Assembly (NCBI GenBank): GCA_965214835.1 | Contig: CBDCCK010000002.1 | Span: 128,001 to 192,000 of the forward strand | Source of the DNA: Nitrosopumilaceae archaeon | Lineage (GTDB): Archaea; Thermoproteota; Nitrososphaeria; Nitrososphaerales; Nitrosopumilaceae | Length of the DNA: 64,000 nucleotides | Reading direction: 5' to 3' | In this document: positions 1,038-20,713 of the stretch, in pieces | How the letters are laid out: every line of letters starts with the position of its first letter | How positions within the stretch are numbered: the first letter of the stretch is position 1 | Notes under the pieces: model-generated | The model's input: only the letters and a program-made list of their open reading frames with translations | Told to the model about the DNA's origin: nothing | Database searches by the model: none | Position numbers and translations under genes: made by a program

Positions 1038-1871
1038 TCAGATCATGCATTCGCTGCCGCAGGGGCTATCGACCCGGACGGACGGCAGTCCCTTCCCGCC
1101 CTTCATGATCCTGCCAAGCTCCCTCAGTGTGTAGCCCTTTGGCGCCAGGTGCTGCCTTCCAAAGTGCTTCCCGCCCTCCTCGAGCTCCACGGCCTGCCTG
1201 TACAGATCCGGGTGGTTTTCATGGATCTCGGCCCACCTTTCCATGCTGTTGAACGGGCACATCGTGCATCCGCTCTTTACGGGAACCGCAAGTCCGGCAT
1301 CCCCTATCAGATCGATGCATCCCCTCCTGTCAATCCGCGAGTCAACCAGGGGATACAGGTTGGTTATCCAGTCCTCCCCCGACGGTTTCATCCTGCGGAC
1401 CTCGCCATAGTCTATCCCCATGTACTGGTATACGTGTGATTTCAGCGCGCGATAAAACGCGTGAATCGGGGTCACCTTCATGTCGCGCGTGCACCAGCGC
1501 CAGACCTGCGACGGAATAACCCTTCGCTTCTGGCACCGGTCTGACAGCGAGGTCTTGTTTCTGGTGCTGACAATTTCAAACGGTATGTCCCTCCTTTGTA
1601 GATATCCCTTCATCACCTTCAGGTACCCGTATGTCTCAGGCATCTCGTTGCCGGTATCAGAAAAGACCACATAGTCCAGGGGAAGCCCGTTGTTTACCAG
1701 GTGGATGATCATGGCAGTGGAATTGACTCCTCCACCATAGCTTGCCACGTATCTTGCATCGGACTCACGCTCCATTCCGACGGTGCTGAGGATCCTTTTC
1801 TGGATCACAGTCTGCCGTTCAGGGTTTAGCTTGCCTGCTCTTCTGCCTTTATGCATTCTATCCAGAATCAA
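1038..1871 (-). CDS. PAPS-reductase-like (adenine nucleotide alpha-hydrolase) protein of the mobile-element type
   Basis: PP-loop SYGGGVNST, VFSDTGNEMPETY, RWCTRDMK, KSGCTMCPF, C-terminal CGSEC; true start may be 1856 or 1775. Confidence 0.8.
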   Translation of the reverse strand: MILDRMHKGRRAGKLNPERQTVIQKRILSTVGMERESDARYVASYGGGVNSTAMIIHLVNNGLPLDYVVFSDTGNEMPETYGYLKVMKGYLQRRDIPFEIVSTRNKTSLSDRCQKRRVIPSQVWRWCTRDMKVTPIHAFYRALKSHVYQYMGIDYGEVRRMKPSGEDWITNLYPLVDSRIDRRGCIDLIGDAGLAVPVKSGCTMCPFNSMERWAEIHENHPDLYRQAVELEEGGKHFGRQHLAPKGYTLRELGRIMKGGKGLPSVRVDSPCGSECMI

Positions 1872-2100
1872 TAATTTTTGCTTAAAAACCGGGTTTTCTT
1901 ACGCAGAAATTTTGAATCGATTGGCAGACATGGCGTCATAACAGGCAGGGCTCTGGAAGTTAAGGCGTGAGTCTTGTCAAAGGCACCGCTCAAACATAAT
2001 TTGCGCCTAAAATGGCAGGTCATTTCCAGAACCATACTGCTGCCATCATCAGTACAGAAGAAACAACATCCTTATCATGTGTCATGCTGATCGTGATTAT

Positions 2101-3261
2101 ATGGGCGTGGATGCATGGCATGAGAGGATGGCAGAATGGCTGGGGATGAATCCTGCCCATAGGCCAAACCGCCTCGTCTGCGTGCTTGAGGACGGCGGCG
2201 GGGATGACGGTATACATGAGGACGCCAGGCGTCTGGGGGTCATGGCGTGTGATGTAGGTGACGAGAGATGGATGATGGCGCCGTCCTCACCTGCCGTCAT
2301 AACGGGCACGCATGATGAGATCTTCTCTAGGGCCCTCAACAGGGGATACGGGGTGCGAGCAGACATGTGGAACATGCAGTTCGGACTGCTCAACAATGAC
2401 TGCCTGTGGGTTGACGGGACGGACAGCGGGCTGCACGCAGCCCTGTCTGATCTGCGCAGCAGGCTTCCCACGTTTCGCACGCCGGAAACTGTAGATCCGT
2501 CACAGTGTCATACCCAAGACATTCCGATTCACGGGCTGTTCGGCACCGGTAACATGTCTGACATAGCCAGGTTCATGCCAAAAGACATGATAGATCAGGA
2601 CGGGTCAATCATTTTAGGTGATATATCTGACATAGCCAGGTTCATGCGGAGACCGGTGGACGGCTGGGAAGGGATACGACCGCCGGCAGGAAGACATCTT
2701 GGAACGCAATGGATTACCCTTGCCGAACACCTCTCCATGACAGAGCGTCTGATATCAGACGTGTGTCCTGCAGGCGTGCCGGACATTGGCTCTCTGAGGA
2801 CTGCTGCCAGGTACCACGACTACGGCAAGGCGCATCCGGAGTTTCAGCGGTGGCTCTTGCAGGGGCTCCCACAAAACGAACATGAGTCAAGGGCGGCCAC
2901 GGCATGGGCAAAGAGAAGACCAAAGGCGGCACTTGGCAGGATAGATTACAGTCACGAGATTGCAGGAGCGGGTGCTCTTCTGCGGCTCCACCCAGGGGAT
3001 CATCTGGCCGCATACCTCGTCATGTCGCACCACGGCAGGTTCAGATCAGACATACCGGATACCACAGGCAGTCTTCCAAGAACGGATCTGGGTGACGGGA
3101 TGGTGGCCGACGAGGTATCATTTATGGTGACATCAGAAGGATGGAGAAAGACATTCGGTGGACTCTACAGGAGGTACGGACCGTTCCTTTTGTCATATTA
3201 CGAGGCGCTGTTGCGCACAGCAGACATGATTGCAAGTGATTCGGATGAGCGCAGACAGTGA
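2101..3261 (+). CDS. cas3: Reduced type I-G (I-U) Cas3-like protein: degenerate helicase remnant + intact C-terminal HD nuclease
   Basis: PNRLVCVL, PAVITGTHDEIFSRALNRGYG...FGLLNNDCLWV match I-G Cas3 helicase motifs Ia/Ib/II region; HD domain TLAEHL...HDYGKA...SHE...SHHG...ADMIAS; Walker A, DExx and RecA2 absent. Confidence 0.8.
   Translation: MGVDAWHERMAEWLGMNPAHRPNRLVCVLEDGGGDDGIHEDARRLGVMACDVGDERWMMAPSSPAVITGTHDEIFSRALNRGYGVRADMWNMQFGLLNNDCLWVDGTDSGLHAALSDLRSRLPTFRTPETVDPSQCHTQDIPIHGLFGTGNMSDIARFMPKDMIDQDGSIILGDISDIARFMRRPVDGWEGIRPPAGRHLGTQWITLAEHLSMTERLISDVCPAGVPDIGSLRTAARYHDYGKAHPEFQRWLLQGLPQNEHESRAATAWAKRRPKAALGRIDYSHEIAGAGALLRLHPGDHLAAYLVMSHHGRFRSDIPDTTGSLPRTDLGDGMVADEVSFMVTSEGWRKTFGGLYRRYGPFLLSYYEALLRTADMIASDSDERRQ
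2557..2647 (+). repeat. 22-bp exact direct repeat (TCTGACATAGCCAGGTTCATGC, period 69) inside the cas3-like gene
   Basis: Copies at 2557-2578 and 2626-2647, both encoding SDIARFM. Confidence 0.9.
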
Positions 3262-4846
3262 TCTCCCAAGGGTATTTTCCAAAAAAGCCGTGCCGTTTTG
3301 GATTGCGGGGTTTGCCGTAACCTGCGCCATGCTGCAGATATTCGGCGGCGACCACCTGCGGCCGGGAAGCCCAGAGGAGGCAATAGCATTCATCACTGTA
3401 AACGTCGAGATACTGGTGACCATGCTGACGGTCACCATGGGCGTGACGCTTCTGGGCCTGCAGTTCAGAGCCCAATCCTATACCATGATGGCACTTGTTC
3501 GATACATCAAGGATCGCGTGGTGTACGGATTCATCTCCGTCTTTACGGCACTGATAGTCTTCAGCATGTCAGTCATGATAATTCCTGGAATAGATCCGGT
3601 AGCAGTCTCACCGTTTGCATTTGCCGGAACGTCGTTTTCAATCGTTTATCTTATAGGGTATGTCTATTACATGGTTCACGAAATCCAGCCTACGCGGACG
3701 ATGGCACACATCAAAACTCAGATAGACGGAATCAGGACATCGGAGATGATACCCGATATCATGGCAGGACGGGATACGGAGTCGGGCTGGATTGAGCGGT
3801 TTGTAGTATGGGAGCAGATAATGCTGCGTGCAGTGGAAACGGACAACCTTTACGTTTACCGGACAGGACTTGACGTCATCTTCGACAAACTCCACCGATG
3901 CCTGGAGGCCTGCAAGGACGACACAAGGGATCCGGTCTATGCATTCTTCTTCCAATACGTGTCGGCCGTAACGCTTGCAGGGGTCAGGGAAAACAGGGAC
4001 AGGTTCGTCAGAATAACAATGGACAAGCTGAAGACCGTGGACGAGGCGATTCCCGAAAGCCGTGACAAGTTCAGCTCGAGACGCATGATGGTGTTTCACA
4101 TGTGGCAGCATGTCATGAGGGAGTCGATACGAATTGGAAACGTCCGCATGTCGCATTACGGAATGCTCGTGATAAGACAACTTCTTGACAGATACCTCAA
4201 AAGGCATCCCAAGGATGCCGGGCACATCCTGACATTTTTCCACATGTACATGTCACGCGCAGTGGATACAGCCATCACAAACAACAACACCGACTATCTG
4301 TTTGACTACGTGAGGATCATTGGAGAGATGGTCTTTCCAGAGAGGCGAGCCGCCGACGAACACACCCCGCTTGAGGCCTGGATAATGATAATGAAATACG
4401 CGATCCGCACGGAACGCATAGGCATGCTTGAGTATGGCATAGGCAGGCTCTTTTCTGTCTTTGGGAGTGCCAAACATGGTACGGATGCCATAAAACACAC
4501 TCACCGCGCCATTGAGGCGGTGGCCATCGAATGTGGATCGGATGAAAGATGCGTGCGTGTCCTGATGGACTCGTATCGGAAGCTGCCGCCGGAGCGATGG
4601 CCGGTACGCGCGTGGAAGCACGTCATGTTTGACTCGATCCACTCTTCTAGGGATGTGATCTTTGATCTGTGTGTGAGTGCCATCCATGACGAGCTGTCAG
4701 ATTCGGATGCGGGGTTCTTTGCCGGGGTTGCACCGGAAATGAGGAGCAACTCCCGGTTGGGCGTGAGCATGCCATCTGAGAGAATACGGGAGATTGGCGC
4801 ACACATTGACATGTGCCTTCACAAATCGGGCGTTCCCCCGGACTGA
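3245..4846 (+). CDS. DUF2254-like multi-pass membrane protein with helical cytoplasmic tail
   Basis: Four N-terminal TM segments, TLLGLQFRAQSYT motif; overlaps the cas3-like stop codon. Confidence 0.6.
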   Translation: MSADSDLPRVFSKKAVPFWIAGFAVTCAMLQIFGGDHLRPGSPEEAIAFITVNVEILVTMLTVTMGVTLLGLQFRAQSYTMMALVRYIKDRVVYGFISVFTALIVFSMSVMIIPGIDPVAVSPFAFAGTSFSIVYLIGYVYYMVHEIQPTRTMAHIKTQIDGIRTSEMIPDIMAGRDTESGWIERFVVWEQIMLRAVETDNLYVYRTGLDVIFDKLHRCLEACKDDTRDPVYAFFFQYVSAVTLAGVRENRDRFVRITMDKLKTVDEAIPESRDKFSSRRMMVFHMWQHVMRESIRIGNVRMSHYGMLVIRQLLDRYLKRHPKDAGHILTFFHMYMSRAVDTAITNNNTDYLFDYVRIIGEMVFPERRAADEHTPLEAWIMIMKYAIRTERIGMLEYGIGRLFSVFGSAKHGTDAIKHTHRAIEAVAIECGSDERCVRVLMDSYRKLPPERWPVRAWKHVMFDSIHSSRDVIFDLCVSAIHDELSDSDAGFFAGVAPEMRSNSRLGVSMPSERIREIGAHIDMCLHKSGVPPD

Positions 4847-4858
4847 CGGAAATCTGCC

Positions 4859-5101
4859 ATGTCGGATTTGCGGTTTTTATGCAAAGCACGTACCGTAAGT
4901 GTGGCAGACAGGGACGACACGGATCCAAATGACAGGCTGGACAGGATCGAGGAAAGACTGGTCAGGCTGGAGGGCATGGTCAGGGACGGAGGTCTGCAGG
5001 GATCGCAGGCCGGCGCACCGGATTCGGAGCCGTCACGTGAAGGCATTGGGGATTTCATTTCGCATACAATAAGGCTGGAGCGCCTCATTGGAAGGGGATA
5101 G
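4859..5101 (+). CDS. Hypothetical small coiled-coil protein
   Basis: RLDRIEERLVRLE heptad; lies between two co-oriented genes. Confidence 0.4.
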   Translation: MSDLRFLCKARTVSVADRDDTDPNDRLDRIEERLVRLEGMVRDGGLQGSQAGAPDSEPSREGIGDFISHTIRLERLIGRG

Positions 5102-5897
5102 GACGTCACGCGGGGGAATCGCACAGTTGTCAGACAGCAGACAGGCCGACGGGAGCACGATAATCAACGACGACTGCATCGACGGGATGAGATCACTTGA
5201 CGACGGGTCGGTGGATCTGATAGTTACTGATCCCCCGTTTGCCATAGGCTTCGGGGCCAGAAGATCAAACTACAACCGCAGACCGGACAACGTCCTGGAC
5301 GGATACGGCGAAATCAGGCAAAGGGACTATCTTTCCTTCAGCCGGAGCTGGATCAGCGAGGCATATGGGGTTCTCAGGGAGTCCGGAAGCATGTTTGTCT
5401 TTTCGGGATGGAGCAACCTGAAGGACGTCCTGATTGCACTGGATGAGGCCGGTTTCATCACGGTCAACCACATAATCTGGAGATACCAGTTCGGGGTCGT
5501 TACAAAGAAAAGGTACGTCACATCCCATTATCACTGCCTCTATGTCTGCAAGGACGACAAAAAAAGAAGGTTCTACCCGGATTCCCGCTTCGGGCCCGGC
5601 AGCGAAAGGTACAGGGACATGGAGGACGTATGGTACATCAGGCGCGAGTACTGGAGGAACGAAAAGAAGACGCCCACCAAGCTGCCTTCGGAGATAATAA
5701 GAAAGATTCTCCAGTACGCAAGCAGGCCCGGTGATCTGGTCCTGGATCCCTTTCTGGGATCTGGCCAGGTGGCGGCAGTCAGCAAGGAGATGGGAAGGTG
5801 CTATCTGGGGTTTGAGATCATCAGGGAATACTTTGACTTTGCCAAAAGGCACATAGGGAAGACCCGGGCGCAGGAGACCTCAGGCAGCCGGTCATGA
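5088..5897 (+). CDS. Site-specific DNA methyltransferase (N6-A/N4-C, beta class), orphan
   Basis: Motif IV VTDPPF precedes motif I LVLDPFLGSG; TPTKLP. Confidence 0.92.
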   Translation: MEGDRTSRGGIAQLSDSRQADGSTIINDDCIDGMRSLDDGSVDLIVTDPPFAIGFGARRSNYNRRPDNVLDGYGEIRQRDYLSFSRSWISEAYGVLRESGSMFVFSGWSNLKDVLIALDEAGFITVNHIIWRYQFGVVTKKRYVTSHYHCLYVCKDDKKRRFYPDSRFGPGSERYRDMEDVWYIRREYWRNEKKTPTKLPSEIIRKILQYASRPGDLVLDPFLGSGQVAAVSKEMGRCYLGFEIIREYFDFAKRHIGKTRAQETSGSRS

Positions 5898-6030
5898 TGG
5901 CGGGGCAGGCCCGACCGCAGCGGGGATTCCGCTTTGCATGATCCGGATCCCGTGGTTGACAATTATTACTCGTTTTGTGATTAATTTTAAATCAAGCCTG
6001 CCAAGTCGCGTCATATAGATCTGACACGGG

Positions 6031-6732
6031 TTGACACAAAGACGAATCGCTGATCATCGCAGGTTTGTGCCGGTGATTGCGGCACTGGTGCTGGCGTTAT
6101 CGGGCCCTGCATGCGTGCACGCCTCAGACGGGGCCGACGGCGGTGAGCTGGCAGGTGAGCTGAGAGGCATCCGAGAGTCGCTTGATGCCATCAACCTTAG
6201 CAATTCGCTGAACTTTATGATTGGGATCACAATCGCCTTCATAGCTATAATTGCCACCATCTATAACAGCAAAAAACTGAACAGGCAGCTGGCAATACAC
6301 GAGCGGGAGATCAAGTACAGGACAAGGCCTGTTCTTGTAAGGGGGCGCTATGATGACGGCAACACGTTCAGCATAAGGGATGCAGACCGCCGGTTATGGA
6401 TCAAGGTCACAAACGTCGGACCACTTCCGGCAGTCGGCATAAAACGTCGGATGCGATCAGGAATAGCCAGAAAGGACCGCAGCGCGGAGACGCTGGAGGA
6501 GATGCAGTATGTGTCAACCGACATGCCGTCAATAGGCCCCGACGAGTATGTCGACAACATAATACGCATGTCAGAGGAGGAATACGGCGAGCTGTGCGGC
6601 GGCGAGCGTTATTTCTTCGAGCTTGAAATAGAGTATGCAGAGCCAGAGAACAGGGAGAAGAGGTACCGCTATCACATACGCGGGCATTTTGAGAAGAGGA
6701 ACCTGATCCAGGATCATGTTGACATGAGCTAG
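6031..6732 (+). CDS. Membrane-anchored hypothetical protein
   Basis: Signal-like N-terminus, TM helix FMIGITIAFIAIIATIY, RPVL then beta-rich domain (VTNVGPLPA). Confidence 0.65.
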   Translation: MTQRRIADHRRFVPVIAALVLALSGPACVHASDGADGGELAGELRGIRESLDAINLSNSLNFMIGITIAFIAIIATIYNSKKLNRQLAIHEREIKYRTRPVLVRGRYDDGNTFSIRDADRRLWIKVTNVGPLPAVGIKRRMRSGIARKDRSAETLEEMQYVSTDMPSIGPDEYVDNIIRMSEEEYGELCGGERYFFELEIEYAEPENREKRYRYHIRGHFEKRNLIQDHVDMS

Positions 6733-7568
6733 GACCTTGTGCGCCCAGACCTGCACGAGTGGTACATCATGCCGGTATTGTATGATACGCCGGTCCTCCC
6801 CGTATAATCGACGGTTATCAGTCCTCCCAGGCCGCCGCGCATGCAGCCAAGCTCCCTTATTGCGAGATCTGCGGCCGCCTGTGCCGCCGCCCCGGATTCC
6901 ATTATATCGCACGCCCTTTTTGCGGCGCATGATTTCATCAGGACGTCCCCGTTTCCAGTAGTCACGGCCGCACCGGCCCCGTTTTTGGCGTAATATCCGG
7001 CACCCACTATTGCAGAGTCTCCGACCCTGCCGGGAGTCTTGCCCCACACTCCTCCGGTTGAGACTGCGGCGGCAAGGTCGCCATCCTTGTCGAGCACGAC
7101 ACATCCGACGGTTCCGTACTTTTCCCTTGCGGCCTCAAGCCCTCTCAGTTGCACTCTTCCTGGCGCCATCTCGTGCTTCTGTATCCCATGGGAGCGTGCA
7201 AACTCGGATGCGCCGCCGCCTGTAACGAGGGAATGGGCAGATCCGGACATGACGTACCATGCCACCCTTATGGGGTTCCTGACATGCTTGATGGCCCCGA
7301 CACCCCCGCATTCCATGGTTTTCCCGTTCATCATCCCGGCATCCATCTCGATGGTGCCGTCGCTGGTGAGGCAGGAGCCTGCCCCCGCGTTGAATGCGCC
7401 GTCATCCTCCATCCTGGTAATGCAGTGGAGTGCCACATCAACTGCGCGTCCTCCGCCATCGAGGATTGAGTAGGACTCGTCGGCAATGCAGTTGATTGTA
7501 ATTAACACACCGTCATCAGGCGTTCCATCCCCTGCCCCGCCGTGAACTAGGATGCCGTGTTTTGACAT
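6729..7568 (-). CDS. iaaA: Isoaspartyl peptidase/L-asparaginase (Ntn hydrolase)
   Basis: VHGGAG, FNAGAGS, EMDAG, nucleophile GTVG, STGG...GRVGDS, TGNGD. Confidence 0.93.
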   Translation of the reverse strand: MSKHGILVHGGAGDGTPDDGVLITINCIADESYSILDGGGRAVDVALHCITRMEDDGAFNAGAGSCLTSDGTIEMDAGMMNGKTMECGGVGAIKHVRNPIRVAWYVMSGSAHSLVTGGGASEFARSHGIQKHEMAPGRVQLRGLEAAREKYGTVGCVVLDKDGDLAAAVSTGGVWGKTPGRVGDSAIVGAGYYAKNGAGAAVTTGNGDVLMKSCAAKRACDIMESGAAAQAAADLAIRELGCMRGGLGGLITVDYTGRTGVSYNTGMMYHSCRSGRTRS

Positions 7569-7820
7569 GTATCTACAACTCGCGACGATCATATTTAACC
7601 TATCAATGCCGGCACCGTGCAAGTTCATCCCATGCACAAACCGCGGCTTAATAGCAAACGGCAGTGAATATGACATGGCGTCGACTGTGATACATGGGGG
7701 CATATCTACACTTGCGATAGCTGCCGGCGTGGCAACACTGCTGGTAGGTTACGCGGTGCACATACTTGGGATAGGCCCGCGCAATTGAAGATGTCATACC
7801 AATGTCGGTGTCTGATATTA

Positions 7821-8367
7821 GCTTCAATGGGACCACGACATTATCGTCGCGGAAATGGATGATGGCGCCGTCTTCGCCTGCCGTCATAACGGGCTTCAAT
7901 GGGGCCGCAACTTTATCGTCGCGGAAAGATATAATGCGAGATTTAACACAGGAACTCGGAAACTTGCTTCAATGGGGCCGCAACTTTATCGTCGCGGAAA
8001 GGTCGGAACCATGGGACGGATTGGCGGGACGGGAGGACGCTTCAATGGGGCCGCAACTTTATCGTCGCGGAAAGGTCGGAACCATGGGACGGATTGGCGG
8101 GACGGGAGGACGCTTCAATGGGGCCGCGACATTACCGTCGCGGAAATTCGTGAGGGCCCTGGAAATGATGATGCGTATATCACAGCTTCAATGGGGCCGC
8201 GACATTACCGTCGCGGAAATAGCTTTCTGCATATGCCGTTACATGCATCGTCATTACGCTTCAATGGGGCCGCGACATTACCGTCGCGGAAATTGGGTAA
8301 TGACGTGACTACCATATCCCTGCAGGGCAACGCTTCAATGGGGCCGCGACATTACCGTCGCGGAAAT
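7821..8367 (-). CRISPR. CRISPR mini-array: 8 x 36-bp type I-G-like repeats, 7 spacers (36-38 bp)
   Basis: Repeats start at 7821, 7893, 7966, 8039, 8112, 8185, 8258, 8332; consensus GCTTCAATGGGGCCGCGACATTACCGTCGCGGAAAT (reverse complement ends ATTGAAGC). Degenerate repeat at 7821 marks the trailer, so the leader is to the right. Spacers 3 and 4 are identical. Confidence 0.97.
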
Positions 8368-8593
8368 ACTGCAATGCCGACAGGTTCGGCCATTGCCTGT
8401 GCGTGACAGGCATCTTTTTTGTACAGCCCTTGCGTTTTTCGCACCACACATGCCGCGATGGCATGCGTCCTCACACTCACATATAATACATTTTCAAGCG
8501 CCTCCTCACAGCGGTGGTACCCAGGATCCCTCGCATGCCACGCCTGCCGGTGACACCAGAGACATACGTGACGATCTGACGCATATGCAGGAT

Positions 8594-10026: not shown

Positions 10027-10425
10027 TCACCGTATCTCGACTACCTTGGTCCTGACTATGGTGCTGCCGTCGGTCCCCGACGCATCCACTATGAGCGTTA
10101 TATGCGTGGCCCCTTCTGCGCCGTCCACTATTCCAGATATCAGTCCGGACGATCTTCCTGCGGGCAGGGAGGCGCCGGGCTGGTCCACTGCCAGATCAGA
10201 CGGGGTGCTGACCGACAGGCCGGATATGTCCACGTTGCCTATGTTGTGCAGCGAGTAGCTCAGCAGCACGTCGCCGGACTGGGACAGGCGCCTGGCCTCG
10301 GCGCTCACCTGCAGGTCAAGCCGGTCAATGTCAAACTGCCCGGAGCTGAATGCAACTGCCAGCACGACGGGAACGATGACGCCGGCCGCAAGAAAAATCG
10401 CCAGGTATTCAGAAGAGAGGTTCAT
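10027..10425 (-). CDS. Pilin-like/secreted protein
   Basis: N-terminal hydrophobic helix then beta domain with LHNIGNVDI; resembles 42178-42633 and 42702-43268. Confidence 0.6.
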   Translation of the reverse strand: MNLSSEYLAIFLAAGVIVPVVLAVAFSSGQFDIDRLDLQVSAEARRLSQSGDVLLSYSLHNIGNVDISGLSVSTPSDLAVDQPGASLPAGRSSGLISGIVDGAEGATHITLIVDASGTDGSTIVRTKVVEIR

Positions 10426-10928
10426 TTCCTTACGTACCTTTTCAGCCTGGAGACGGCGGCCAGTATCTCGTCCATGCTACGGCCCCCGACTACTGCGTGA
10501 TACCCGTACGCCTTGACGTCGCAGCCGCCGATGCGGATCTGGACGCGCGCAAACCTCTCGTTGGATCTTATGTATCCCGGGGCGCCGCGCAGCCTGTCTA
10601 GGTCCAGCATCCTGCCGTCAAAGGAGACGTGCGTCACCACGTACCGCACGGTGAACTTTTCGACGGTCCTGATCTTCATGCCGAGCCTTTTGAGCAGCGA
10701 GACGAACGCCCTTGCCGCGCCGACTGCCGCCTTCTCGGAGGTGGAGCCGACCGACGTCACCCTTCCGGAATCGTACAGGTATATCATGGCGCCGCCGGAC
10801 GGCACGTACAGGGCAGGAAGGCCGTTGGGGCGGTACTGGGCATCGCGGACGCTGCGGACTATGGCCTCCGGGTCGTGCCCGGATATCATGCCGGCGGCAA
10901 TTACGTTGTCCACCTTTACCATCATCAT
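10422..10928 (-). CDS. Divergent TATA-box-binding-protein (TBP)-like protein
   Basis: VDNVIA...YRPNGLPALY...LYDSGRVTSVGSTS (TBP repeat 1) and VRYVVT...LDLDRL...ERFARV...VVGGRS (repeat 2); 168 aa; ATGA overlap with the upstream gene. Confidence 0.7.
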   Translation of the reverse strand: MMMVKVDNVIAAGMISGHDPEAIVRSVRDAQYRPNGLPALYVPSGGAMIYLYDSGRVTSVGSTSEKAAVGAARAFVSLLKRLGMKIRTVEKFTVRYVVTHVSFDGRMLDLDRLRGAPGYIRSNERFARVQIRIGGCDVKAYGYHAVVGGRSMDEILAAVSRLKRYVRK

Positions 10929-11329
10929 TTCCCGGGATTCTCCATCCTCCTCTTGACGATGATCGACCTGACGGCCTCTATGTTGTTGGCAACGGCGCAC
11001 AGGTGGATCATGCCGACAAAGAACGGCAGGAACGCGTCGGCCATTATGACGTACCATCCGAGGCAGACCGCTATGCCTGCCGAGAATATCACCATGATTG
11101 CATGGTACGGGCCCATGTGGCGGCGGAGGATGCCGAACATGGCGTTCTTCTCGTACCGTTCAAAGTCGCGCACCCGTATGGTGGTAAAGGCGTCAGCCGC
11201 AAAGCAGACCGTGTAAAACGACATGGCCACTGCCATCCCGTGGCCGCCAAGCAGCGTGTGCGCAAACACCCCGGTCACAAACGAGAAGGAAAGCGTTATG
11301 ATTCCGATAAAAAGGGGGATGAGGTTCAT
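10925..11329 (-). CDS. Multi-pass membrane protein in transfer operon
   Basis: Four hydrophobic segments; translationally coupled to the TBP-like gene. Confidence 0.7.
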   Translation of the reverse strand: MNLIPLFIGIITLSFSFVTGVFAHTLLGGHGMAVAMSFYTVCFAADAFTTIRVRDFERYEKNAMFGILRRHMGPYHAIMVIFSAGIAVCLGWYVIMADAFLPFFVGMIHLCAVANNIEAVRSIIVKRRMENPGK

Positions 11330-11338
11330 GCCGGGCTC

Positions 11339-11698
11339 TCACCTGGCACGTGCCACGTATGCTGTAGTACCGGCTGCCGCCGTCCGCATCCTGGCGGCGC
11401 AGTGTCTGCACGGAGTGTCCATGCGAAGGGTTATTCCGACCATGACGGATCCGCCTATGATGACCAGGTATATTGCCATCTGCATGTACACCTTCATCTC
11501 AGAAAAGAAGTCAGTCATGAATCCGCCGAAGATCCTGTCGTCCTCGTCGGCCAGATCCGTCGTGTCGACTGCAAACAGGCTGTCGGCCGCATAAAGTGAT
11601 CCCGCTATGATCACGATGCCGATTATCATGTACATCGGCGATCCGCGTAGCGCGTCTGACAGATCCTCGCCCTTTCGTTTTTCTATCATGGAATCCAC
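11339..11698 (-). CDS. 2-TM membrane protein in transfer operon
   Basis: Two TM helices, directly downstream of the VirD4-like gene. Confidence 0.6.
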   Translation of the reverse strand: MDSMIEKRKGEDLSDALRGSPMYMIIGIVIIAGSLYAADSLFAVDTTDLADEDDRIFGGFMTDFFSEMKVYMQMAIYLVIIGGSVMVGITLRMDTPCRHCAARMRTAAAGTTAYVARAR

Positions 11699-11712: not shown

Positions 11713-14709
11713 TTAAACCCTAGATTGACTGTCTTCCCTCTTTTTTCCCATCCTGTACAGGTGCGCCCTGCCGCCCTTCCTCATGCGTATGGCATACCCC
11801 ATATCGGCTATCTGGCCTGCGATATAGTCGACCTCGTCGCGCTTTGAGGGATCGTTCCTGTTGGATTCCCACATCTGCAGGAGCCGCTGGCAGTGCAGCC
11901 GCTCGGCGTCTGCCTGCGGGCGGTCCCCGTCACCGTCGTCCTCCTTTGCTACAGCCGCTGCTGCTGCTTCTGCGTCATGCGGCCCGTCCTCGCAGTCCGG
12001 AGCCGGAAGCGCCGGAATCCTTTCCTGCGCGGCATCTGCTGCAGTGGTGGCGTCGTTGCCGTCATTATCACCGTCGGCATCGACATCAGCTGCATCCGTT
12101 GTGGCATCTGCAAATGTCACCGGTCCGGCGGATTCTTCTGCGGTATCCGGAGTGCCGTGGGGGATATGAGAACCGGACGGGGTCGCCGCCTCCGCTGCAG
12201 GCTGCTGCCCGGAGCCCTCATTCGCGACACCGCCGCCATCATCTGCGGTGTCGCCGGCATCCGCAGGCCGCCGTCCCGCCTTCAGGTGCTCATACCATCC
12301 GGCCTTGTTGTACGTGTCAACCCTGTCAGTGTCACGACCGCTGGCGACGGCCCCGTCCCTGGCAGCTGTATGGAGGGGGACCGGATCATCATCGTTCTGG
12401 CCGCCACCGTCCGCGTCTCCGCCGCCGGCATCAGCAGGGGGCGACACGCTGCCGCGTCCCCTGTACAGCACGTCCATGTCCTCGGGCCCGAGATCGCCGG
12501 ACTTGTCGGGGAGCAGCGGCCTGACTCCCGGCAGCGACCAGACGACATACAGCGACGGATCCTGCACGCGCCTGCCGTCCGCATCTCCGCCCCGGCCGGT
12601 GATGCCGCTCCTTTCCAGCCTGCCTTCCAGCCCCTGCAGCGACGCGATGACGTCTGCCTCGTCAAACTGCCATACTGAGTCGCAGACGAACCGCTGGGTG
12701 GCAGTCCCGCCTGCGCCCGAGAGCACCTCCATGATGCGGGCCTCACAGGCCGACATTGATCTTATGTTCTCGGATTTCGTATCAGTCAGGTGTGTCCTGT
12801 CCATTACCGTGAGCCGGTACTTGTCGCGCGAGACGCCGTTCTGCTTCATTGTATCGTGCATCCTCTCGGCCGTTGCCGCATCAAAGACGACAAACCAGAC
12901 TGAGTGGCCCAGCGCAGACGACTTTTGCCAGTTTACATACACCTGCTCCCAGTGCTTGCCTGGCCCCGTCTCGACCTCGACTGCCGTGATATCATCAGAC
13001 CACTCCGACGGGTTGAACAGTACGTCTTTGCGGCCGTCCCTGTCCCTGACGGGCTTGGGCGAGTATATCACGAGGTCTGCCTGCTTGGCCGCCCCCCTCC
13101 CGAGATCGGGAACGCAGTACCTCCCGTTGTTGACGTTGATCTCCATTATGGCAAATATGGCAGACAGGTGGAGGTCCCCTCCGGCCCTGCGGCCTGCGGC
13201 CGACCTCGAGAACAGGTTGTGCATGGCAGACTTTGTTATGGTGTATCTTGACTCGAACTTTTCGTCGCCGTCATCGCTTACCGTGTCGTGCTGGGAGACG
13301 TACCCGTTTGTGGCAATCAGCGTGTCGTGCAGCGCCGAGGAGACGTGCCGGGCGTCAGTCGCGTACCTGCGCAGCATGGCATCCGTTATCTCCTTTTTTG
13401 TCATGTCTCGGCTTTCTGTGCGCAGCAGGTTGAGTATCCCGAACTCCAGCGGCGTCAACTGCACGTCTGCGCCCCCGCCGCTCTGCGTGTAGTATTTGTC
13501 AAGGGAGACGAACTTGCCCAGCCGCATGACGCTGTGCCGCGAGGCCTCCTCGGAGCGGTCAGGTATCTCCATGTGGCGCGTCTTTGCCACCGCCTTTACC
13601 GGATTCGTGCCCCCCGACCAGAACGAAAAGTGGTGGAACGGCAGCTGCGTCTGCCGCTCGGGCTTTATCGGCAGTATGGACTTGAGCGAGGCGGCAGTCG
13701 TCGCGTCGCACCTGAAACAGGCGATTGCGCGGCACAGCGTCGGCAGCTCGGCTGCAAACTCGCGCTCTATGGCAGACGTTGACTGGGTGGCAATGGTCGC
13801 CTTGATGCCGTACTTGCGGACGGTATTGAGCAGCTCCCTGATCATGGGCTCTGAGAACATCTGCACCTCGTCCAGGTACAGGTTAAACGGCGCAAACCCC
13901 CCGCCGGGCTGGCGCTGTCTCTTGAGGTACGCGGTATAGAACAGGTGAAGAAACACGTTTCCCAGAAACTTTGTCATGTCGTTTGTCACCCCGCCAAAGT
14001 CCAGCACCACGTACATTCCCCGGTTCAGTATGTCCTCAAACGTTATGGAGGAGCGGCGCGTGTTGAACATCGCATCAAGCTCCGGGACGGTAAGCATCTT
14101 GTTGAGCTTGTTGAAGATGACGCCGCCTGCCTCCTTTGGATACTGCTCCCAGTATACCCTGGTGAAAAAGTCGCGGGCCTGCCGGTTCTGTATCTGTCCG
14201 ACGAACCCCTCGGAGAACTCCTTGTCCGTAAGAAGGCGGATCATGGCGCCAAGCGTGTCTGACTGCGTCCCGATTACGGCAAGTGCGCCGTTTCTGGCGC
14301 ACGTCTCCACGCGGGCCCCCCACGAGTCCGAGAACGCCTTTGCCAGGCATTCTGTGAACGTCAGCGAGACCATTCCCGCCTCGTGGGGATCGTCTATCTG
14401 CAGCGGGTTGAACCTTAGCGTCTTGTCAAGCTTCTTGATCGAGGAGAGGCTGACGTACACTATCCGGTCGTACTGCTCTGGCGGTATCAGCGAGAGGACC
14501 TCGCGGGACAGCTCCGAGTGGTTCTCTGCAAGCAGAAAGCCCCTTCCGGCCTTGATATCCTGCAGGATGAGCAGCCTCAGGACGCTTGACTTGCCGGAGC
14601 CTATCTCGCCGAGTATCAGCATGTTCTGCCGGGCCCTGTACGGCATCGTGAGGACCTTGCGGCCTGCCAGGTATCCGATTACCGAGTGATCGTGCGGGTT
14701 GACCGACAT
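11713..14709 (-). CDS. VirD4/TraD-like coupling ATPase fused to wHTH and PD-(D/E)xK-like domains
   Basis: Walker A GEIGSGKS, Walker B LYLDEVQ, RKYGI..TIATQ; C-terminal half ADLVIY...TAVEVETG; acidic low-complexity tail. Confidence 0.8.
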   Translation of the reverse strand: MSVNPHDHSVIGYLAGRKVLTMPYRARQNMLILGEIGSGKSSVLRLLILQDIKAGRGFLLAENHSELSREVLSLIPPEQYDRIVYVSLSSIKKLDKTLRFNPLQIDDPHEAGMVSLTFTECLAKAFSDSWGARVETCARNGALAVIGTQSDTLGAMIRLLTDKEFSEGFVGQIQNRQARDFFTRVYWEQYPKEAGGVIFNKLNKMLTVPELDAMFNTRRSSITFEDILNRGMYVVLDFGGVTNDMTKFLGNVFLHLFYTAYLKRQRQPGGGFAPFNLYLDEVQMFSEPMIRELLNTVRKYGIKATIATQSTSAIEREFAAELPTLCRAIACFRCDATTAASLKSILPIKPERQTQLPFHHFSFWSGGTNPVKAVAKTRHMEIPDRSEEASRHSVMRLGKFVSLDKYYTQSGGGADVQLTPLEFGILNLLRTESRDMTKKEITDAMLRRYATDARHVSSALHDTLIATNGYVSQHDTVSDDGDEKFESRYTITKSAMHNLFSRSAAGRRAGGDLHLSAIFAIMEINVNNGRYCVPDLGRGAAKQADLVIYSPKPVRDRDGRKDVLFNPSEWSDDITAVEVETGPGKHWEQVYVNWQKSSALGHSVWFVVFDAATAERMHDTMKQNGVSRDKYRLTVMDRTHLTDTKSENIRSMSACEARIMEVLSGAGGTATQRFVCDSVWQFDEADVIASLQGLEGRLERSGITGRGGDADGRRVQDPSLYVVWSLPGVRPLLPDKSGDLGPEDMDVLYRGRGSVSPPADAGGGDADGGGQNDDDPVPLHTAARDGAVASGRDTDRVDTYNKAGWYEHLKAGRRPADAGDTADDGGGVANEGSGQQPAAEAATPSGSHIPHGTPDTAEESAGPVTFADATTDAADVDADGDNDGNDATTAADAAQERIPALPAPDCEDGPHDAEAAAAAVAKEDDGDGDRPQADAERLHCQRLLQMWESNRNDPSKRDEVDYIAGQIADMGYAIRMRKGGRAHLYRMGKKREDSQSRV

Positions 14710-14721
14710 CGGCCGGGCCCC

Positions 14722-16563
14722 TCACCTCGGCCTGAACAGCTCCAGCTGCTCCTGGTCGGGAAGCACGTCGACCGGGACCACGGAGTTGCCAAAGCGCACG
14801 AGCGCCTGCCCGCGCCGCATCCGCATCAGCCAGTTGCTCATCTCGCCAGACAGCACAAAGTGCTCGTTGAGGGCGCGCGACGTGGCCTCGGACTGGCGCA
14901 GAAACATCACGGTGTCCGAGTTGACCAGGACGTTGCGGGCCGCCTCGTTTGCTGTCATGTCCTCGATGTTCTGCGTTGCCATGAGCATGTTGATGTTGTA
15001 CTTTCTTCCTCGGCGGGAGAGGTGCTGTATATAGTCTCCCAGCGGCCCGTGCTGGAGGAGCATCCACACCTCGTCGAGCATGAACAGCTTGGGGACTGTC
15101 TTTGACATCATCAGCGAGCGGCCAAGCGCGTACGACAGAGCTATCTGGGTTATCAGGCGGTGGACCGTCCCGCCCGCGGAGCCCACGTTCTTGAGGGAGA
15201 GTATGACGCGCTTTGTGTCCGGCGCCATGCCCCGGAAAAAGTCCTCGTACGGGTGGTGGCACAGCATCCTGAACTGGCCGAGCACCTGCCTGTCCTCGGG
15301 CTCCGTGTGCTTTTCCACCGCATCCACAAATCTGAAAAAGCTGCGCTCCTCCATCGGCATGTTCGACATGTCGGTGGCCGCCATGTTCGCGGGCATCCTC
15401 TTTTCCTCGGGTATGAGCAGCGCGTCGCACAGCGTCTCGGAGGCCGCAAAGGCGTCGGGCACCATCCGGAATAAATCGAGGCCCATCTGCTTGCCCGTCG
15501 AATAGTCCAGGTACGTAAAGCCCATCGAGTCGCCCAGCGCGCGGTACTCGGACTCGGGGTCTATCCCGAATATGAACGCCTCCGGATACATCCGGTCAAA
15601 GGCGTGTATTATCATCATTGCAAGCGTCGTCTTGCCGGATCCTGACAGCGCCGCAAGCACGGTGTTGCGGTTTATGCGGTTGTTGATGTTCCACCGGAAC
15701 GGGTTGCCGGTTACCGTATTGACTCCGAGCAGTATGCCGCCGTCCTCGTAGAGCTCCGACGTCGAGAACGGGACGAGCGCCGCAAAGGTCTCCGTTATGG
15801 CAAGCATCTGCTGGCCCTGCTCCCCTGCAAGCATCTGCGACTGGACGTGGCGCGCAGTCTCCACCCCGGGTACCCCGCGCATGTCTGCCTCGAATACGCG
15901 GGCGCGCTCCCTCAGCTTCTGGTAGTCAAGGGCAAACACCAGCGGTATTATCCGCATCGTATACAGCGACGTCTGGTTTCCGGTTATCATCTCCTTGATT
16001 GCCCGCGCGCTTGCGGCCACGTCGACGCCGCTTGCCGACGAGTCCGTGCTTGAGGAGGCCATGTGGCTTGCAACAACGGAATGCCGCTTTTCGGGTGGGA
16101 TCGGGTTCACGAACATCCTGACGGCATCGGCCTTGGAGTATATGCCGTATATCCACCCTGGGGGCAGCTCGTCGGCAAGCATCCCGATGGTGTACGCCTT
16201 GCAGTATATCCCCGACTTTAGCACGGTACAGTCGGTGTGCTCCCTCTCGACGTCCCATCGGCGGACCTCCGCCGGGCCCGACGATATCGGGGCGACGATA
16301 TGTTCTGCCTCCTTTTCTGCGGTTGTCAGCATGACAGTATCCATCGGGCACCTGCGGACCGTCTTGTTGAATGACAGCTCCTCATAGTCGCGTATGACGT
16401 CCACCGTGAACGGCTCGCGCAGCCTTGAGAGCACGCCGGTATAGTTTGACACCAGGACGTCGCGCTCTGAAACGTCCGATACGGTGCTCTCCGGGTTTGA
16501 GAACATGATGTTTATCGGGCTCAGCCTGAATGCCCTGGGCTTGCCGCGCGTCCTTTTTGGCAT
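14722..16563 (-). CDS. VirB4-like conjugation ATPase
   Basis: GILLGVN, NRN..ALSGSGKT (Walker A), IDPESEY, FMLDEVW (Walker B), RRGRKYN..MATQ. Confidence 0.88.
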   Translation of the reverse strand: MPKRTRGKPRAFRLSPINIMFSNPESTVSDVSERDVLVSNYTGVLSRLREPFTVDVIRDYEELSFNKTVRRCPMDTVMLTTAEKEAEHIVAPISSGPAEVRRWDVEREHTDCTVLKSGIYCKAYTIGMLADELPPGWIYGIYSKADAVRMFVNPIPPEKRHSVVASHMASSSTDSSASGVDVAASARAIKEMITGNQTSLYTMRIIPLVFALDYQKLRERARVFEADMRGVPGVETARHVQSQMLAGEQGQQMLAITETFAALVPFSTSELYEDGGILLGVNTVTGNPFRWNINNRINRNTVLAALSGSGKTTLAMMIIHAFDRMYPEAFIFGIDPESEYRALGDSMGFTYLDYSTGKQMGLDLFRMVPDAFAASETLCDALLIPEEKRMPANMAATDMSNMPMEERSFFRFVDAVEKHTEPEDRQVLGQFRMLCHHPYEDFFRGMAPDTKRVILSLKNVGSAGGTVHRLITQIALSYALGRSLMMSKTVPKLFMLDEVWMLLQHGPLGDYIQHLSRRGRKYNINMLMATQNIEDMTANEAARNVLVNSDTVMFLRQSEATSRALNEHFVLSGEMSNWLMRMRRGQALVRFGNSVVPVDVLPDQEQLELFRPR

Positions 16564-20208: not shown

Positions 20209-20333
20209 GTTTGGAGGGCGCAGGTTATAAGGATAAAATCGCGAAGGTGCCCCGACCTGGAGGATTGCGCGTTACCGGTGTGATTACTGACTCTGGAAGT
20301 TCAGGCATGGGTTTTGTTACTGATTGTAAGTTA

Positions 20334-20418
20334 CGTGGAAGGCGGGATTCGAACCCGCGGATCGGTTAGAATCAATTGCTTAGGAGACAACCGCTATACC
20401 TGGCTAAGCGACTTCCAC
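20334..20418 (-). tRNA. tRNA with CCT (Arg) anticodon and atypical long variable arm
   Basis: Acceptor GTGGAAG/CTTCCAC, anticodon loop CTCCTAA, T-arm GCGGG-TTCGAAT-CCCGC, variable arm GATT-CTAACC-GATC. Confidence 0.75.
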
Positions 20419-20713
20419 ATGATTCTGTCTTTACGTAATGATAAAAATGTTCTAGGGCTGATCCTAACCTTTGTCTCCCACCCTAGAACCGCCTAATCGA
20501 TTAATCCAATCTGCATGACAGAGAGGACCGCGAGCGCGAAGGCAATATTGGATTTCAAAGGCTATTATATAATTATTTGTTAGCCCAGGAGCTGGGACAT
20601 TAACGGGTGTTTATTCTCCTTGGGACATGCTGGGTGCTGGAAATCTCAGATTTTGAAGACTTAAAAACAGCATGGTCGTATGCAATTATCAGTATGGTGA
20701 TGACCTTAACTGG

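Follow-up and report, generated by a model that had tools for sequence, protein, structure and literature searches.

A cas-less type I-G CRISPR array in a Nitrosopumilaceae genome carries a spacer nearly identical to part of a neighbouring cas3g-like gene

[quoted passage not shown] The Sulfolobales portogloboviruses SPV1 and SPV2, as presented by Medvedeva et al. 2019 (PMC6858448), carry virus-borne mini-arrays with host-like leaders, whose spacers match near-array genes of sibling viruses and whose own matching site is point-mutated. The thaumarchaeal integrative-conjugative elements NCAV2-E1 and NitIsl-E1, in the account of Krupovic et al. 2019 (PMC6563490), bear cas-less type I-B arrays with repeats identical to those of their hosts and with spacers against other elements. 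We analysed a 64,000-nt stretch of a Nitrosopumilaceae archaeon genome (GenBank assembly GCA_965214835.1, contig CBDCCK010000002.1, positions 128,001 to 192,000), hereafter the window, in which a small array with type I-G repeats ends in a spacer, W7, that matches a nearby gene for a reduced Cas3g-like protein, mini-Cas3g. All coordinates are positions in the window unless a contig is named, where C1 and C2 denote contigs and labels in L and G denote loci and genomes.

As in the portogloboviruses, the array is cas-less and has a promoter-bearing, host-like leader, it would depend on host Cas proteins in trans, its target gene lies near the array, and the carrier's own site is mutated. Unlike the mini-arrays of that report, which hold one or two spacers on a virus, it holds seven spacers with I-G repeats in an ammonia-oxidising archaeon, on a carrier resembling a conjugative element, and its target is a Cas3-derived cargo gene for which no perfectly matching sibling was seen. 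With NCAV2-E1 and NitIsl-E1 it shares the phylum, a cas-less array on a VirB4/VirD4-type element, repeats that are (nearly) those of the host array and a probable acquisition in trans; those elements, as described, have type I-B repeats, 69-96 spacers and defined attachment (att) sites, whereas here we find I-G repeats, a small array, no integrase or att site, and a gene for a helicase-less Cas3g alongside. The alteration of the carrier's site, familiar from arrays in mobile-element conflict, consists here of two mismatches and a TGC flank and may protect it from cleavage. It is plausible, though unproven, that this array is a further case of cas-less arrays on mobile elements acting in conflicts between related elements.

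Spacer W7, its array and the host type I-G system

The features on which the comparison rests are the following:

2077-3261, plus strand: mini-cas3g, 394 aa (386 aa if the start is at 2101), with a vestigial RecA1 piece without Walker A or DEAH and an intact C-terminal HD domain
2270-2305, minus strand: protospacer-like site, a 34/36 match to W7, encoding residues 65-77 (WMMAPSSPAVITG) within the conserved N-terminal block
2306-2308, minus strand: protospacer-adjacent motif (PAM) position, plus-strand GCA and thus 5'-TGC-3' on the minus strand, not of the AT-rich, TTN type
7821-7856, minus strand: terminal (trailer) repeat, degenerate, with 3 mismatches to the leader-side repeat
7857-7892, minus strand: spacer W7, the oldest, reading CCGTTATGAC... 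in the sense of its CRISPR RNA (crRNA)
7893-8367, minus strand: the other seven repeats and six spacers, with three older repeats of the main-array type and four leader-side repeats identical to one another
8368-8570, minus strand: leader, with a B recognition element (BRE)/TATA-like box at 8480-8497, homologous to the leader of the main I-G array

W7 (36 nt) and the gene agree at 34 of 36 positions, a pairing that arose in none of 100 shuffles, and with up to 8 mismatches allowed the spacer sequence occurs at only two places in the whole 3.22-Mb genome, in the array itself and at 2270-2305. At 2286 the gene has C and the spacer T, and at 2289 the gene has A and the spacer G; in the open reading frame (ORF) 2077-3261 both positions are third codon positions, of Ser70 (TCC) and Ser71 (TCA), and both differences are synonymous. 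Of all 108 single-base changes possible across the 36 nt, 26 are synonymous, which puts the chance that both are silent at p ~0.058 (0.049 for transitions). Counted in the direction of the crRNA, spacer positions 17 and 20 are mismatched, both outside the seed, and positions 1-16 pair perfectly with the mini-cas3g site. The codon of Gly77 (GGC, 2305-2307) reaches into the PAM position, such that a silent change of GGC to GGA at 2307 would turn TGC into TTC. The W7 crRNA is antisense to the mini-cas3g mRNA and pairs with the non-template (plus) strand inside the ORF. All of these particulars, namely the match, its two Ser-to-Ser differences and a flank one silent glycine change away from TTC, had been put forward in the original prediction and were confirmed, the match being in addition unique in the genome. 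As a separate observation, the identity between gene and array runs 2 nt past the spacer on each side (2268-2307 versus 7855-7894), with AT on one side and GC on the other, and so reaches into the repeat ends, an extension expected by chance in about 1 of 256 cases.

The array (7821-8367) comprises eight repeats and seven spacers at a spacing of 72-74 nt, with no cas genes of its own, and no further cas remnants were found within the window. Several features support its transcription from the minus strand: the 36-nt repeat, which holds a stem-loop, ends on that strand in ATTGAAGC and would give an 8-nt handle, such as the 8-nt 5' handle described for type I-G crRNA (PMC9638904); Rfam CRISPR-DR16 matches the minus strand with 38.6 bits; the most degenerate repeat is located at the 7821 end; and the segment at 8368-8570 is homologous to the leader of the host's main array, with 100 of 139 aligned positions identical (72%) over the last 140 columns and the BRE/TATA-like box common to both. 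W7 is therefore the trailer-end, oldest spacer, and the orientation anticipated from the letters alone is borne out by each of these features.

Membership in type I-G is indicated both by repeats near-identical to those of a cas-flanked array and by the homologous leader. Compared with the 148 identical repeats of the main array, the repeats in the window differ at 2-5 of 36 positions, the changes in the stem being compensatory or of the G-T kind. The three older repeats differ from the four leader-side ones at 3-4 positions and resemble the main-array repeat; since four identical leader-side repeats follow three of the older type, no fewer than three spacers must have entered once the first repeat had changed, which points to continued acquisition in trans. 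Two minor features of the array were also seen. A perfect 73-nt tandem duplication (7966-8111) is made up of spacers W4 and W5 together with their repeats, and the 191 nt beside the trailer (7622-7812), a potential coding region for a hydrophobic peptide of 37 aa, recur 11.1 kb upstream as a direct copy with 85% identity (C2:124302-124492), the similarity ending just before the terminal repeat.

The host is an ammonia-oxidising archaeon, with amoA present and ribosomal proteins of archaeal type. The search for a compatible system elsewhere in its genome, which the original prediction had proposed as a check, found a complete type I-G locus with near-identical repeats and a homologous leader at C2:2.48-2.50 Mb, 2.35 Mb from the window array. 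It runs from cas4g/cas1g through cas2, the main array (148 identical repeats, 147 spacers), an IS630 transposase gene, cas3g, cas8g2, cas7g and csb2; the host Cas3g has 846 aa and scores 630 bits on NCBIfam TIGR02621, and the cas1 of this locus is the sole cas1 in the genome. The transposase gene, of the IS630 family (L002:81-1100; C2, ~2.493 Mb), lies between the 147-spacer main array and cas3g. A genome search found neither Cmr2 nor Csm1, and thus no Cas10, and a type III route was rejected on this result.

The mini-Cas3g family

In common with type I-G Cas3g (TIGR02621; the Thioalkalivibrio system of PMC9638904), mini-Cas3g has a C-terminal HD domain with H, HD, H and HH motifs and has kept one RecA1 segment, from SRALNRGYG to FGLLNND; unlike Cas3g as represented by that model and report, it has neither Walker A nor DEAH and no second RecA domain at all, ~400 residues being missing altogether. 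TIGR02621 matches it with 184 bits against a cut-off of 400, in two stretches that correspond to model positions 664-853 and a short N-terminal piece, so that neither the score nor the pair of RecA domains with Walker A and DEAH that mark Cas3g proper is present, although PADLOC annotates the ORF 2077-3261 as Cas3g. In a tblastn comparison with the host Cas3g only residues 125-173 and 676-845 of the latter matched, and the closest full-length Cas3g proteins share ~38% identity over 45% of the query. In the family alignment, the stretch LWVDGTDSG occupies what we take to be the place of the DEAH motif.

The nuclease domain, by contrast with the missing motor, appears intact. The residues expected of an HD nuclease (H218, H247, D248, H253, H293, H318 and H319) are invariant in 16 sequences, and Pfam Cas3_HD scores 27.1 bits against a cut-off of 23.1. 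An AlphaFold2 model has a mean predicted local distance difference test (pLDDT) value of 67, with 85-95 in the HD part; the best Protein Data Bank matches of this model in Foldseek are Cas3-HD entries, led by 8wth at E 0.079, and with no match reaching E <=0.001 the fold search agrees weakly with the sequence-based assignment.

Homologues of similar length fall into 15 clusters of 355-386 aa, with 95-99% of the query aligned at 36-54% identity, and share a conserved N-terminal block (RLVCV, W65, ITG, SRALNRGYG, FGLLNND) together with all HD-type His and Asp residues. In a profile search of 1.84 billion representatives, 11 representatives at the 50%-identity level with 324-372 aa scored 276-589 bits in one stretch, and all longer proteins (710-1114 aa, full-length Cas3g) scored at most 180 bits in 2-4 stretches. 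The ratio dN/dS between the copies of loci L047 and L049 is 0.17, indicating purifying selection. Judged from these comparisons of sequence, mini-Cas3g is a small, discrete family of ~360 aa, derived from Cas3g, which lacks the helicase motor and retains the nuclease domain; the reduced Cas3 gene of the original prediction thus stands as a member of a conserved helicase-less family rather than as debris. A lone cas3g pseudogene of a decayed locus was considered and rejected on the strength of the full-length ~360-aa homologues, the purifying selection and the discreteness of the family.

With one genome taken per species, 4 of 34 confirmed loci (L046-L049) cover the whole protein, all of them in Nitrosopumilus or Nitrosopumilaceae, and in a sample of 401 genomes of the archaeal family the whole mini-cas3g ORF occurs in three (G000, G400 and G413), four further matches lying within Cas3g frames of 808-918 aa. 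Across the five carrier genomes, cas7g is present in one (G000) and was not found in the other four, which include G400 at 99% and G413 at 85% completeness; cas1 is present in two of the five. In L047-L049, mini-cas3g is flanked by genes for ribosomal proteins (L21e, S19e), and no array lies within 7-10 kb. Its retention thus does not require an I-G effector in the genome, and an array is not an obligatory companion. A different state is seen in G002, a genome of the same genus (L005:290-434, contig C147), where only the last ~35 codons of mini-cas3g remain, at 83% DNA identity, behind unrelated, stop-filled upstream sequence; unlike the window gene, this remnant is a true stump.

The mini-Cas3g family is the most original by-product of the analysis, and a limited full-text literature search found no description of a helicase-less Cas3g, a result that does not imply its absence from print. 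It is a clean case of a Cas3 that has lost the motor and kept the nuclease domain, under selection even where no I-G Cascade gene was found, and it raises the question of Cas3 exaptation, either for counter-defence or as a stand-alone nuclease.

Two local features of the gene may be recorded here. Its linker contains an in-frame 23-aa tandem duplication (2554-2622, with SDIARFM twice), which is absent from the allele P0167 and from all other family members. Directly upstream, at 1939-2033, lies an element of ~95 nt with short inverted ends that resembles a miniature inverted-repeat transposable element, of which the genome holds ~50 copies (72-94% identity) and G002 many; a tRNA identity was considered for it and rejected.

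Origin of the spacer

We propose, with confidence that is evenly balanced, that an element-borne I-G array took up W7 in trans from a sibling allele, and that the resident copy is spared mainly by its flank. The array would be cas-less, leader-bearing type I-G cargo of an integrated island resembling a conjugative element, and would rely in trans on the host's single complete I-G system, with the host Cas4/1-Cas2 serving in acquisition and Csb2, Cas7g, Cas8g2 and Cas3g in processing and interference. W7 would have been taken from a close allele of the island's own mini-cas3g, most likely one belonging to a sibling element or strain that had come into this cell lineage. The resident copy has the two silent differences and, more importantly, TGC in place of an AT-rich PAM, such that Cascade should not license its cleavage. 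W7 would then be the record of an encounter with a sibling and, were the array expressed, would still exclude siblings with a PAM-bearing allele.

The uniqueness of the match, the host-like leader and repeats, the later acquisitions, the backbone genes with their variable cargo, the nature of the differences, the existence of sibling alleles and the published precedents argue for this origin. Two silent differences are what divergence between coding alleles, as opposed to divergence in a neutral spacer, would produce. In the 90%-identity cluster of the window protein there are three other natural sequences, P0166, P0167 and P0168. P0166 is a 212-aa fragment, and only the other two cover the target site: P0167 (363 aa, 97% identical) does not have the 23-aa tandem duplication, P0168, with its 394 aa, shows 96% identity, and both have the same WMMAPSSPAVITGTHDE peptide as the window. 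At the DNA level, sequencing run X4 holds the gene and W7 exactly as in the window, on one contig that spans 1900-7917 with 0 differences, and an 881-nt contig from another study (run X6) spans 1900-2434 and differs at 17 of 535 positions, a variant with ~97% identical DNA and a divergence of ~3% between strains. The nearest homologue beyond these alleles (54% identity) differs in its peptide at the target site, and the donor should therefore be either a close allele or the resident gene itself. Sibling alleles of the P0167 or P0168 type are, by protein identity, possible donors, and one of them may match W7 at 36 of 36 positions in DNA and have a TTC flank.

The original prediction had gone further and ascribed self-immunity to the synonymous changes. 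This part is not sustained: in the I-G system of PMC12915315 the seed is taken as positions 1-8, with differences outside it described as unlikely to affect targeting, and the silent changes at positions 17 and 20 are unlikely to act as a shield because they fall outside the seed. The non-TTN flank is the more plausible protection. The characterised I-G PAMs are AT-rich, TTN in PMC9638904 and TAT in PMC12915315, and TGC resembles neither; an AT-rich rule may hold in this host as well.

Several results weigh against the proposed origin. No 36/36 allele was found in viral_contigs, genome_contigs or metagenome_contigs, nor in these three collections any allele that encodes the target peptide with these codon families, the pattern used having kept the peptide and freed nine third positions; the predicted sibling-element source is backed by alleles with an identical peptide and by the ~97% DNA variant, and a perfectly matching allele did not appear. 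None of the six G400 spacers matches the mini-cas3g of G400 itself, and when 818 spacers (154 of the window's own genome, 658 of relatives and six of G400) were compared with sibling-element DNA, only W7 matched, to its own island. Two mismatches so placed (17 and 20) would not suffice to stop type I interference. In the seven sibling loci that have the backbone gene C (listed in the next section), no array lies downstream of it within 11-14 kb in six and 1.7 kb in one, one sibling locus being ended by its contig at 3 kb; the array is accordingly not a fixed part of the backbone, and array and mini-cas3g are cargo in 2 of 11 elements. A tyrosine integrase was not found within ~100 kb, nor was an att-like repeat of the tRNA-Arg (20333-20419), so that mobility is deduced from gene content and patchy distribution alone.

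The evidence on the PAM of this host, finally, comes from one informative protospacer. Main-array spacer M041 matches contig C1 at 36 of 37 positions, and the flank on C1 reads GTT, or TTC with the register moved by one base; deriving the PAM from the other spacers, as had been suggested, thus gave one usable protospacer with an ambiguous flank. C1 belongs to the same organism, because it shares IS66 copies with the chromosome at 99-100% identity. The match (C1:6366-6401, L016) lies inside a gene for a 1270-aa glycosyltransferase, its sole mismatch is spacer position 1, and M041 itself is at C2 ~2.485 Mb. When the genome's own spacers were compared with its own sequence for PAM derivation, only M041 on C1 and one match with 6 mismatches were obtained. 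Main-array spacers had no match in phages and plasmids, window-array spacers had none in phages in a distant mode, and main-array spacers against 121 genomes of the family gave mostly repeat-driven matches to other arrays. The 658 spacers of relatives had 0 matches in the window's genome, and all spacers compared with the fetched loci gave only low-complexity or same-array matches.

Should the sibling-allele origin be correct, type I-G systems and mesophilic ammonia-oxidising archaea would join the settings of CRISPR rivalry between related mobile elements, which is so far known from Sulfolobales viruses and surmised for thaumarchaeal elements whose repeats are of type I-B, and the locus would offer a concrete, testable allele pair, defined by the silent changes and the PAM.

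A tentative alternative, which we consider possible but on balance improbable, is that the host's adaptation machinery sampled the resident mini-cas3g itself, by autoimmune accident or during replication or transfer of the element, and that a silent PAM change (GGA to GGC, turning TTC into TGC) and silent drift have left W7 an inert scar. The matched gene lies only 4.5 kb away in the same island, one silent change suffices to turn TTC into TGC, and the M041 match to C1 at 36/37 shows that self-sampling occurs in this genome. W7 is also the oldest spacer and lies beside a degenerate repeat, a setting listed for ineffective self-targeting spacers in PMC6990116. With the categories of Stern et al. 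2010, as relayed there, it shares a tolerated near-perfect self match, the missing PAM, a mutated adjacent repeat and a pairing that extends 2 nt into the repeat; unlike the spacers so described, it coexists with an intact effector locus and both of its mismatches are silent, which points to an allelic donor rather than to simple decay. A self-derived spacer would moreover need three independent silent substitutions in 39 nt, which is high against a strain divergence of ~3% (17/535), sibling alleles able to act as donors exist, and the array gained at least three more spacers with the host I-G locus intact, so that there was no collapse of the system.

A more elaborate form of the sibling-allele origin, which we regard as unlikely, would make array and mini-Cas3g together a portable cargo module of a family of Nitrosopumilaceae conjugative elements. 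Mini-Cas3g would dock on the host Cascade via Cas8g and either block full Cas3g, thereby shielding the element, or provide a nick-only HD activity; the array would redirect Cascade at rival siblings, with W7 aimed at the rivals' copy of that counter-defence gene and the resident copy shielded by its silent PAM change. A predicted complex of mini-Cas3g with the host Cas8g2 scored 0.22 against a mark of 0.32, with controls not folded, and counts neither for nor against binding.

It is quite unlikely that the locus is instead the relic of a decayed second chromosomal I-G locus, an immobile and functionless array with a cas3g stump in which W7 would be an old and meaningless near-self match. The window without other cas remnants, the failure to find an integrase or att site, the degenerate trailer repeats and the C-terminal stump of the gene in G002 would all suit such decay, but the supposed stump of the window belongs to a discrete, length-conserved family under purifying selection and occurs in four genomes where cas7g was not found, the block is syntenic with a patchily distributed VirB4/TraG backbone, and the run of four identical leader-side repeats speaks for spacers gained once the first repeat had already changed.

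Regulation, in which the W7 crRNA would guide Cascade into the mini-cas3g coding region without licensing Cas3 at the poor PAM and so dampen transcription, is very improbable: the crRNA does pair with the non-template (plus) strand in the ORF, antisense to the mRNA and perfectly so at positions 1-16, and published work describes cr-like RNAs as regulators of cas genes (bioRxiv 10.1101/2023.03.03.530964), but stable type I R-loops need a PAM and TGC is unlike any characterised I-G PAM, the feature is not conserved in G400, no type III effector is available to act on the mRNA, and the known cr-like regulators are partial promoter matches rather than near-full matches to coding regions. Unlike cr-like RNAs of the CreTA or tracr-L type, with a partial match to a promoter or 5' region and a solitary degenerate repeat unit, W7 matches at 34 of 36 positions at least 190 nt inside an ORF and is a regular spacer of a seven-spacer array.

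The island and its cargo

The surroundings of the array and mini-cas3g contain the following further features:

1038-1871, minus strand: cargo gene for an SspD-like 3'-phosphoadenosine-5'-phosphosulfate (PAPS) reductase (Pfam PAPS_reduct; PADLOC SspD 3.8e-34), with a 65%-identical homologue in sibling locus L106
3317-5915, no strand assigned: strain-variable insertion between mini-cas3g and the array, with a DUF2254 membrane protein and a type II-like DNA methyltransferase (Pfam, PADLOC)
10422-11698, minus strand: small backbone genes A, B and C (C with a domain resembling TATA-binding protein), just upstream of the leader and kept next to TraG in sibling elements
11713-14709, minus strand: open frame for a TraG/VirD4-like coupling protein of 998 aa (Pfam TraG-D_C), 56-63% identical in nine sibling loci
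14722-16563, minus strand: open frame for a VirB4/TraG P-loop ATPase of 613 aa (Pfam P-loop_TraG, AAA_10)

From this gene content the region would be an integrated island resembling a conjugative element, possibly immobilised. The mobile-element setting of the original prediction finds support in the intact VirB4- and TraG-like genes, the patchy distribution and the synteny with G400, and falls short in that neither an integrase nor an att site was found. Of the 401 genomes of the family, 11 in three genera, the window's own included, carry close VirB4 orthologues (47-57% identity); 91 further genomes have distant matches only. In G400 synteny extends over more than 45 kb and takes in a 987-aa gene, a 1061-aa gene, VirB4, TraG, genes A, B and C, a 7-repeat array of I-G type, mini-cas3g and an actin/ParM-like gene, with protein identities of 24-56% between the two and with mini-cas3g inverted in one of them. 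Across the nine sibling loci, TraG is present in eight and gene C in seven, and no I-G-type repeat, no CRISPR-like periodic k-mer set and no mini-cas3g was found in these loci.

In the related strain of run X6 the contig skips 3317-5915 and has 42 other letters in its place, which makes this segment a variable cargo region; parts of the stretch left uncovered in runs X5, X6 and X8 are not evidence of absence. Other cargo consists of several type II or orphan methyltransferases, and no fewer than four additional genes of the DNA methyltransferase or type IIG-like kind lie in the island and its surroundings (20714-22837; C2:120610-123218, L088).

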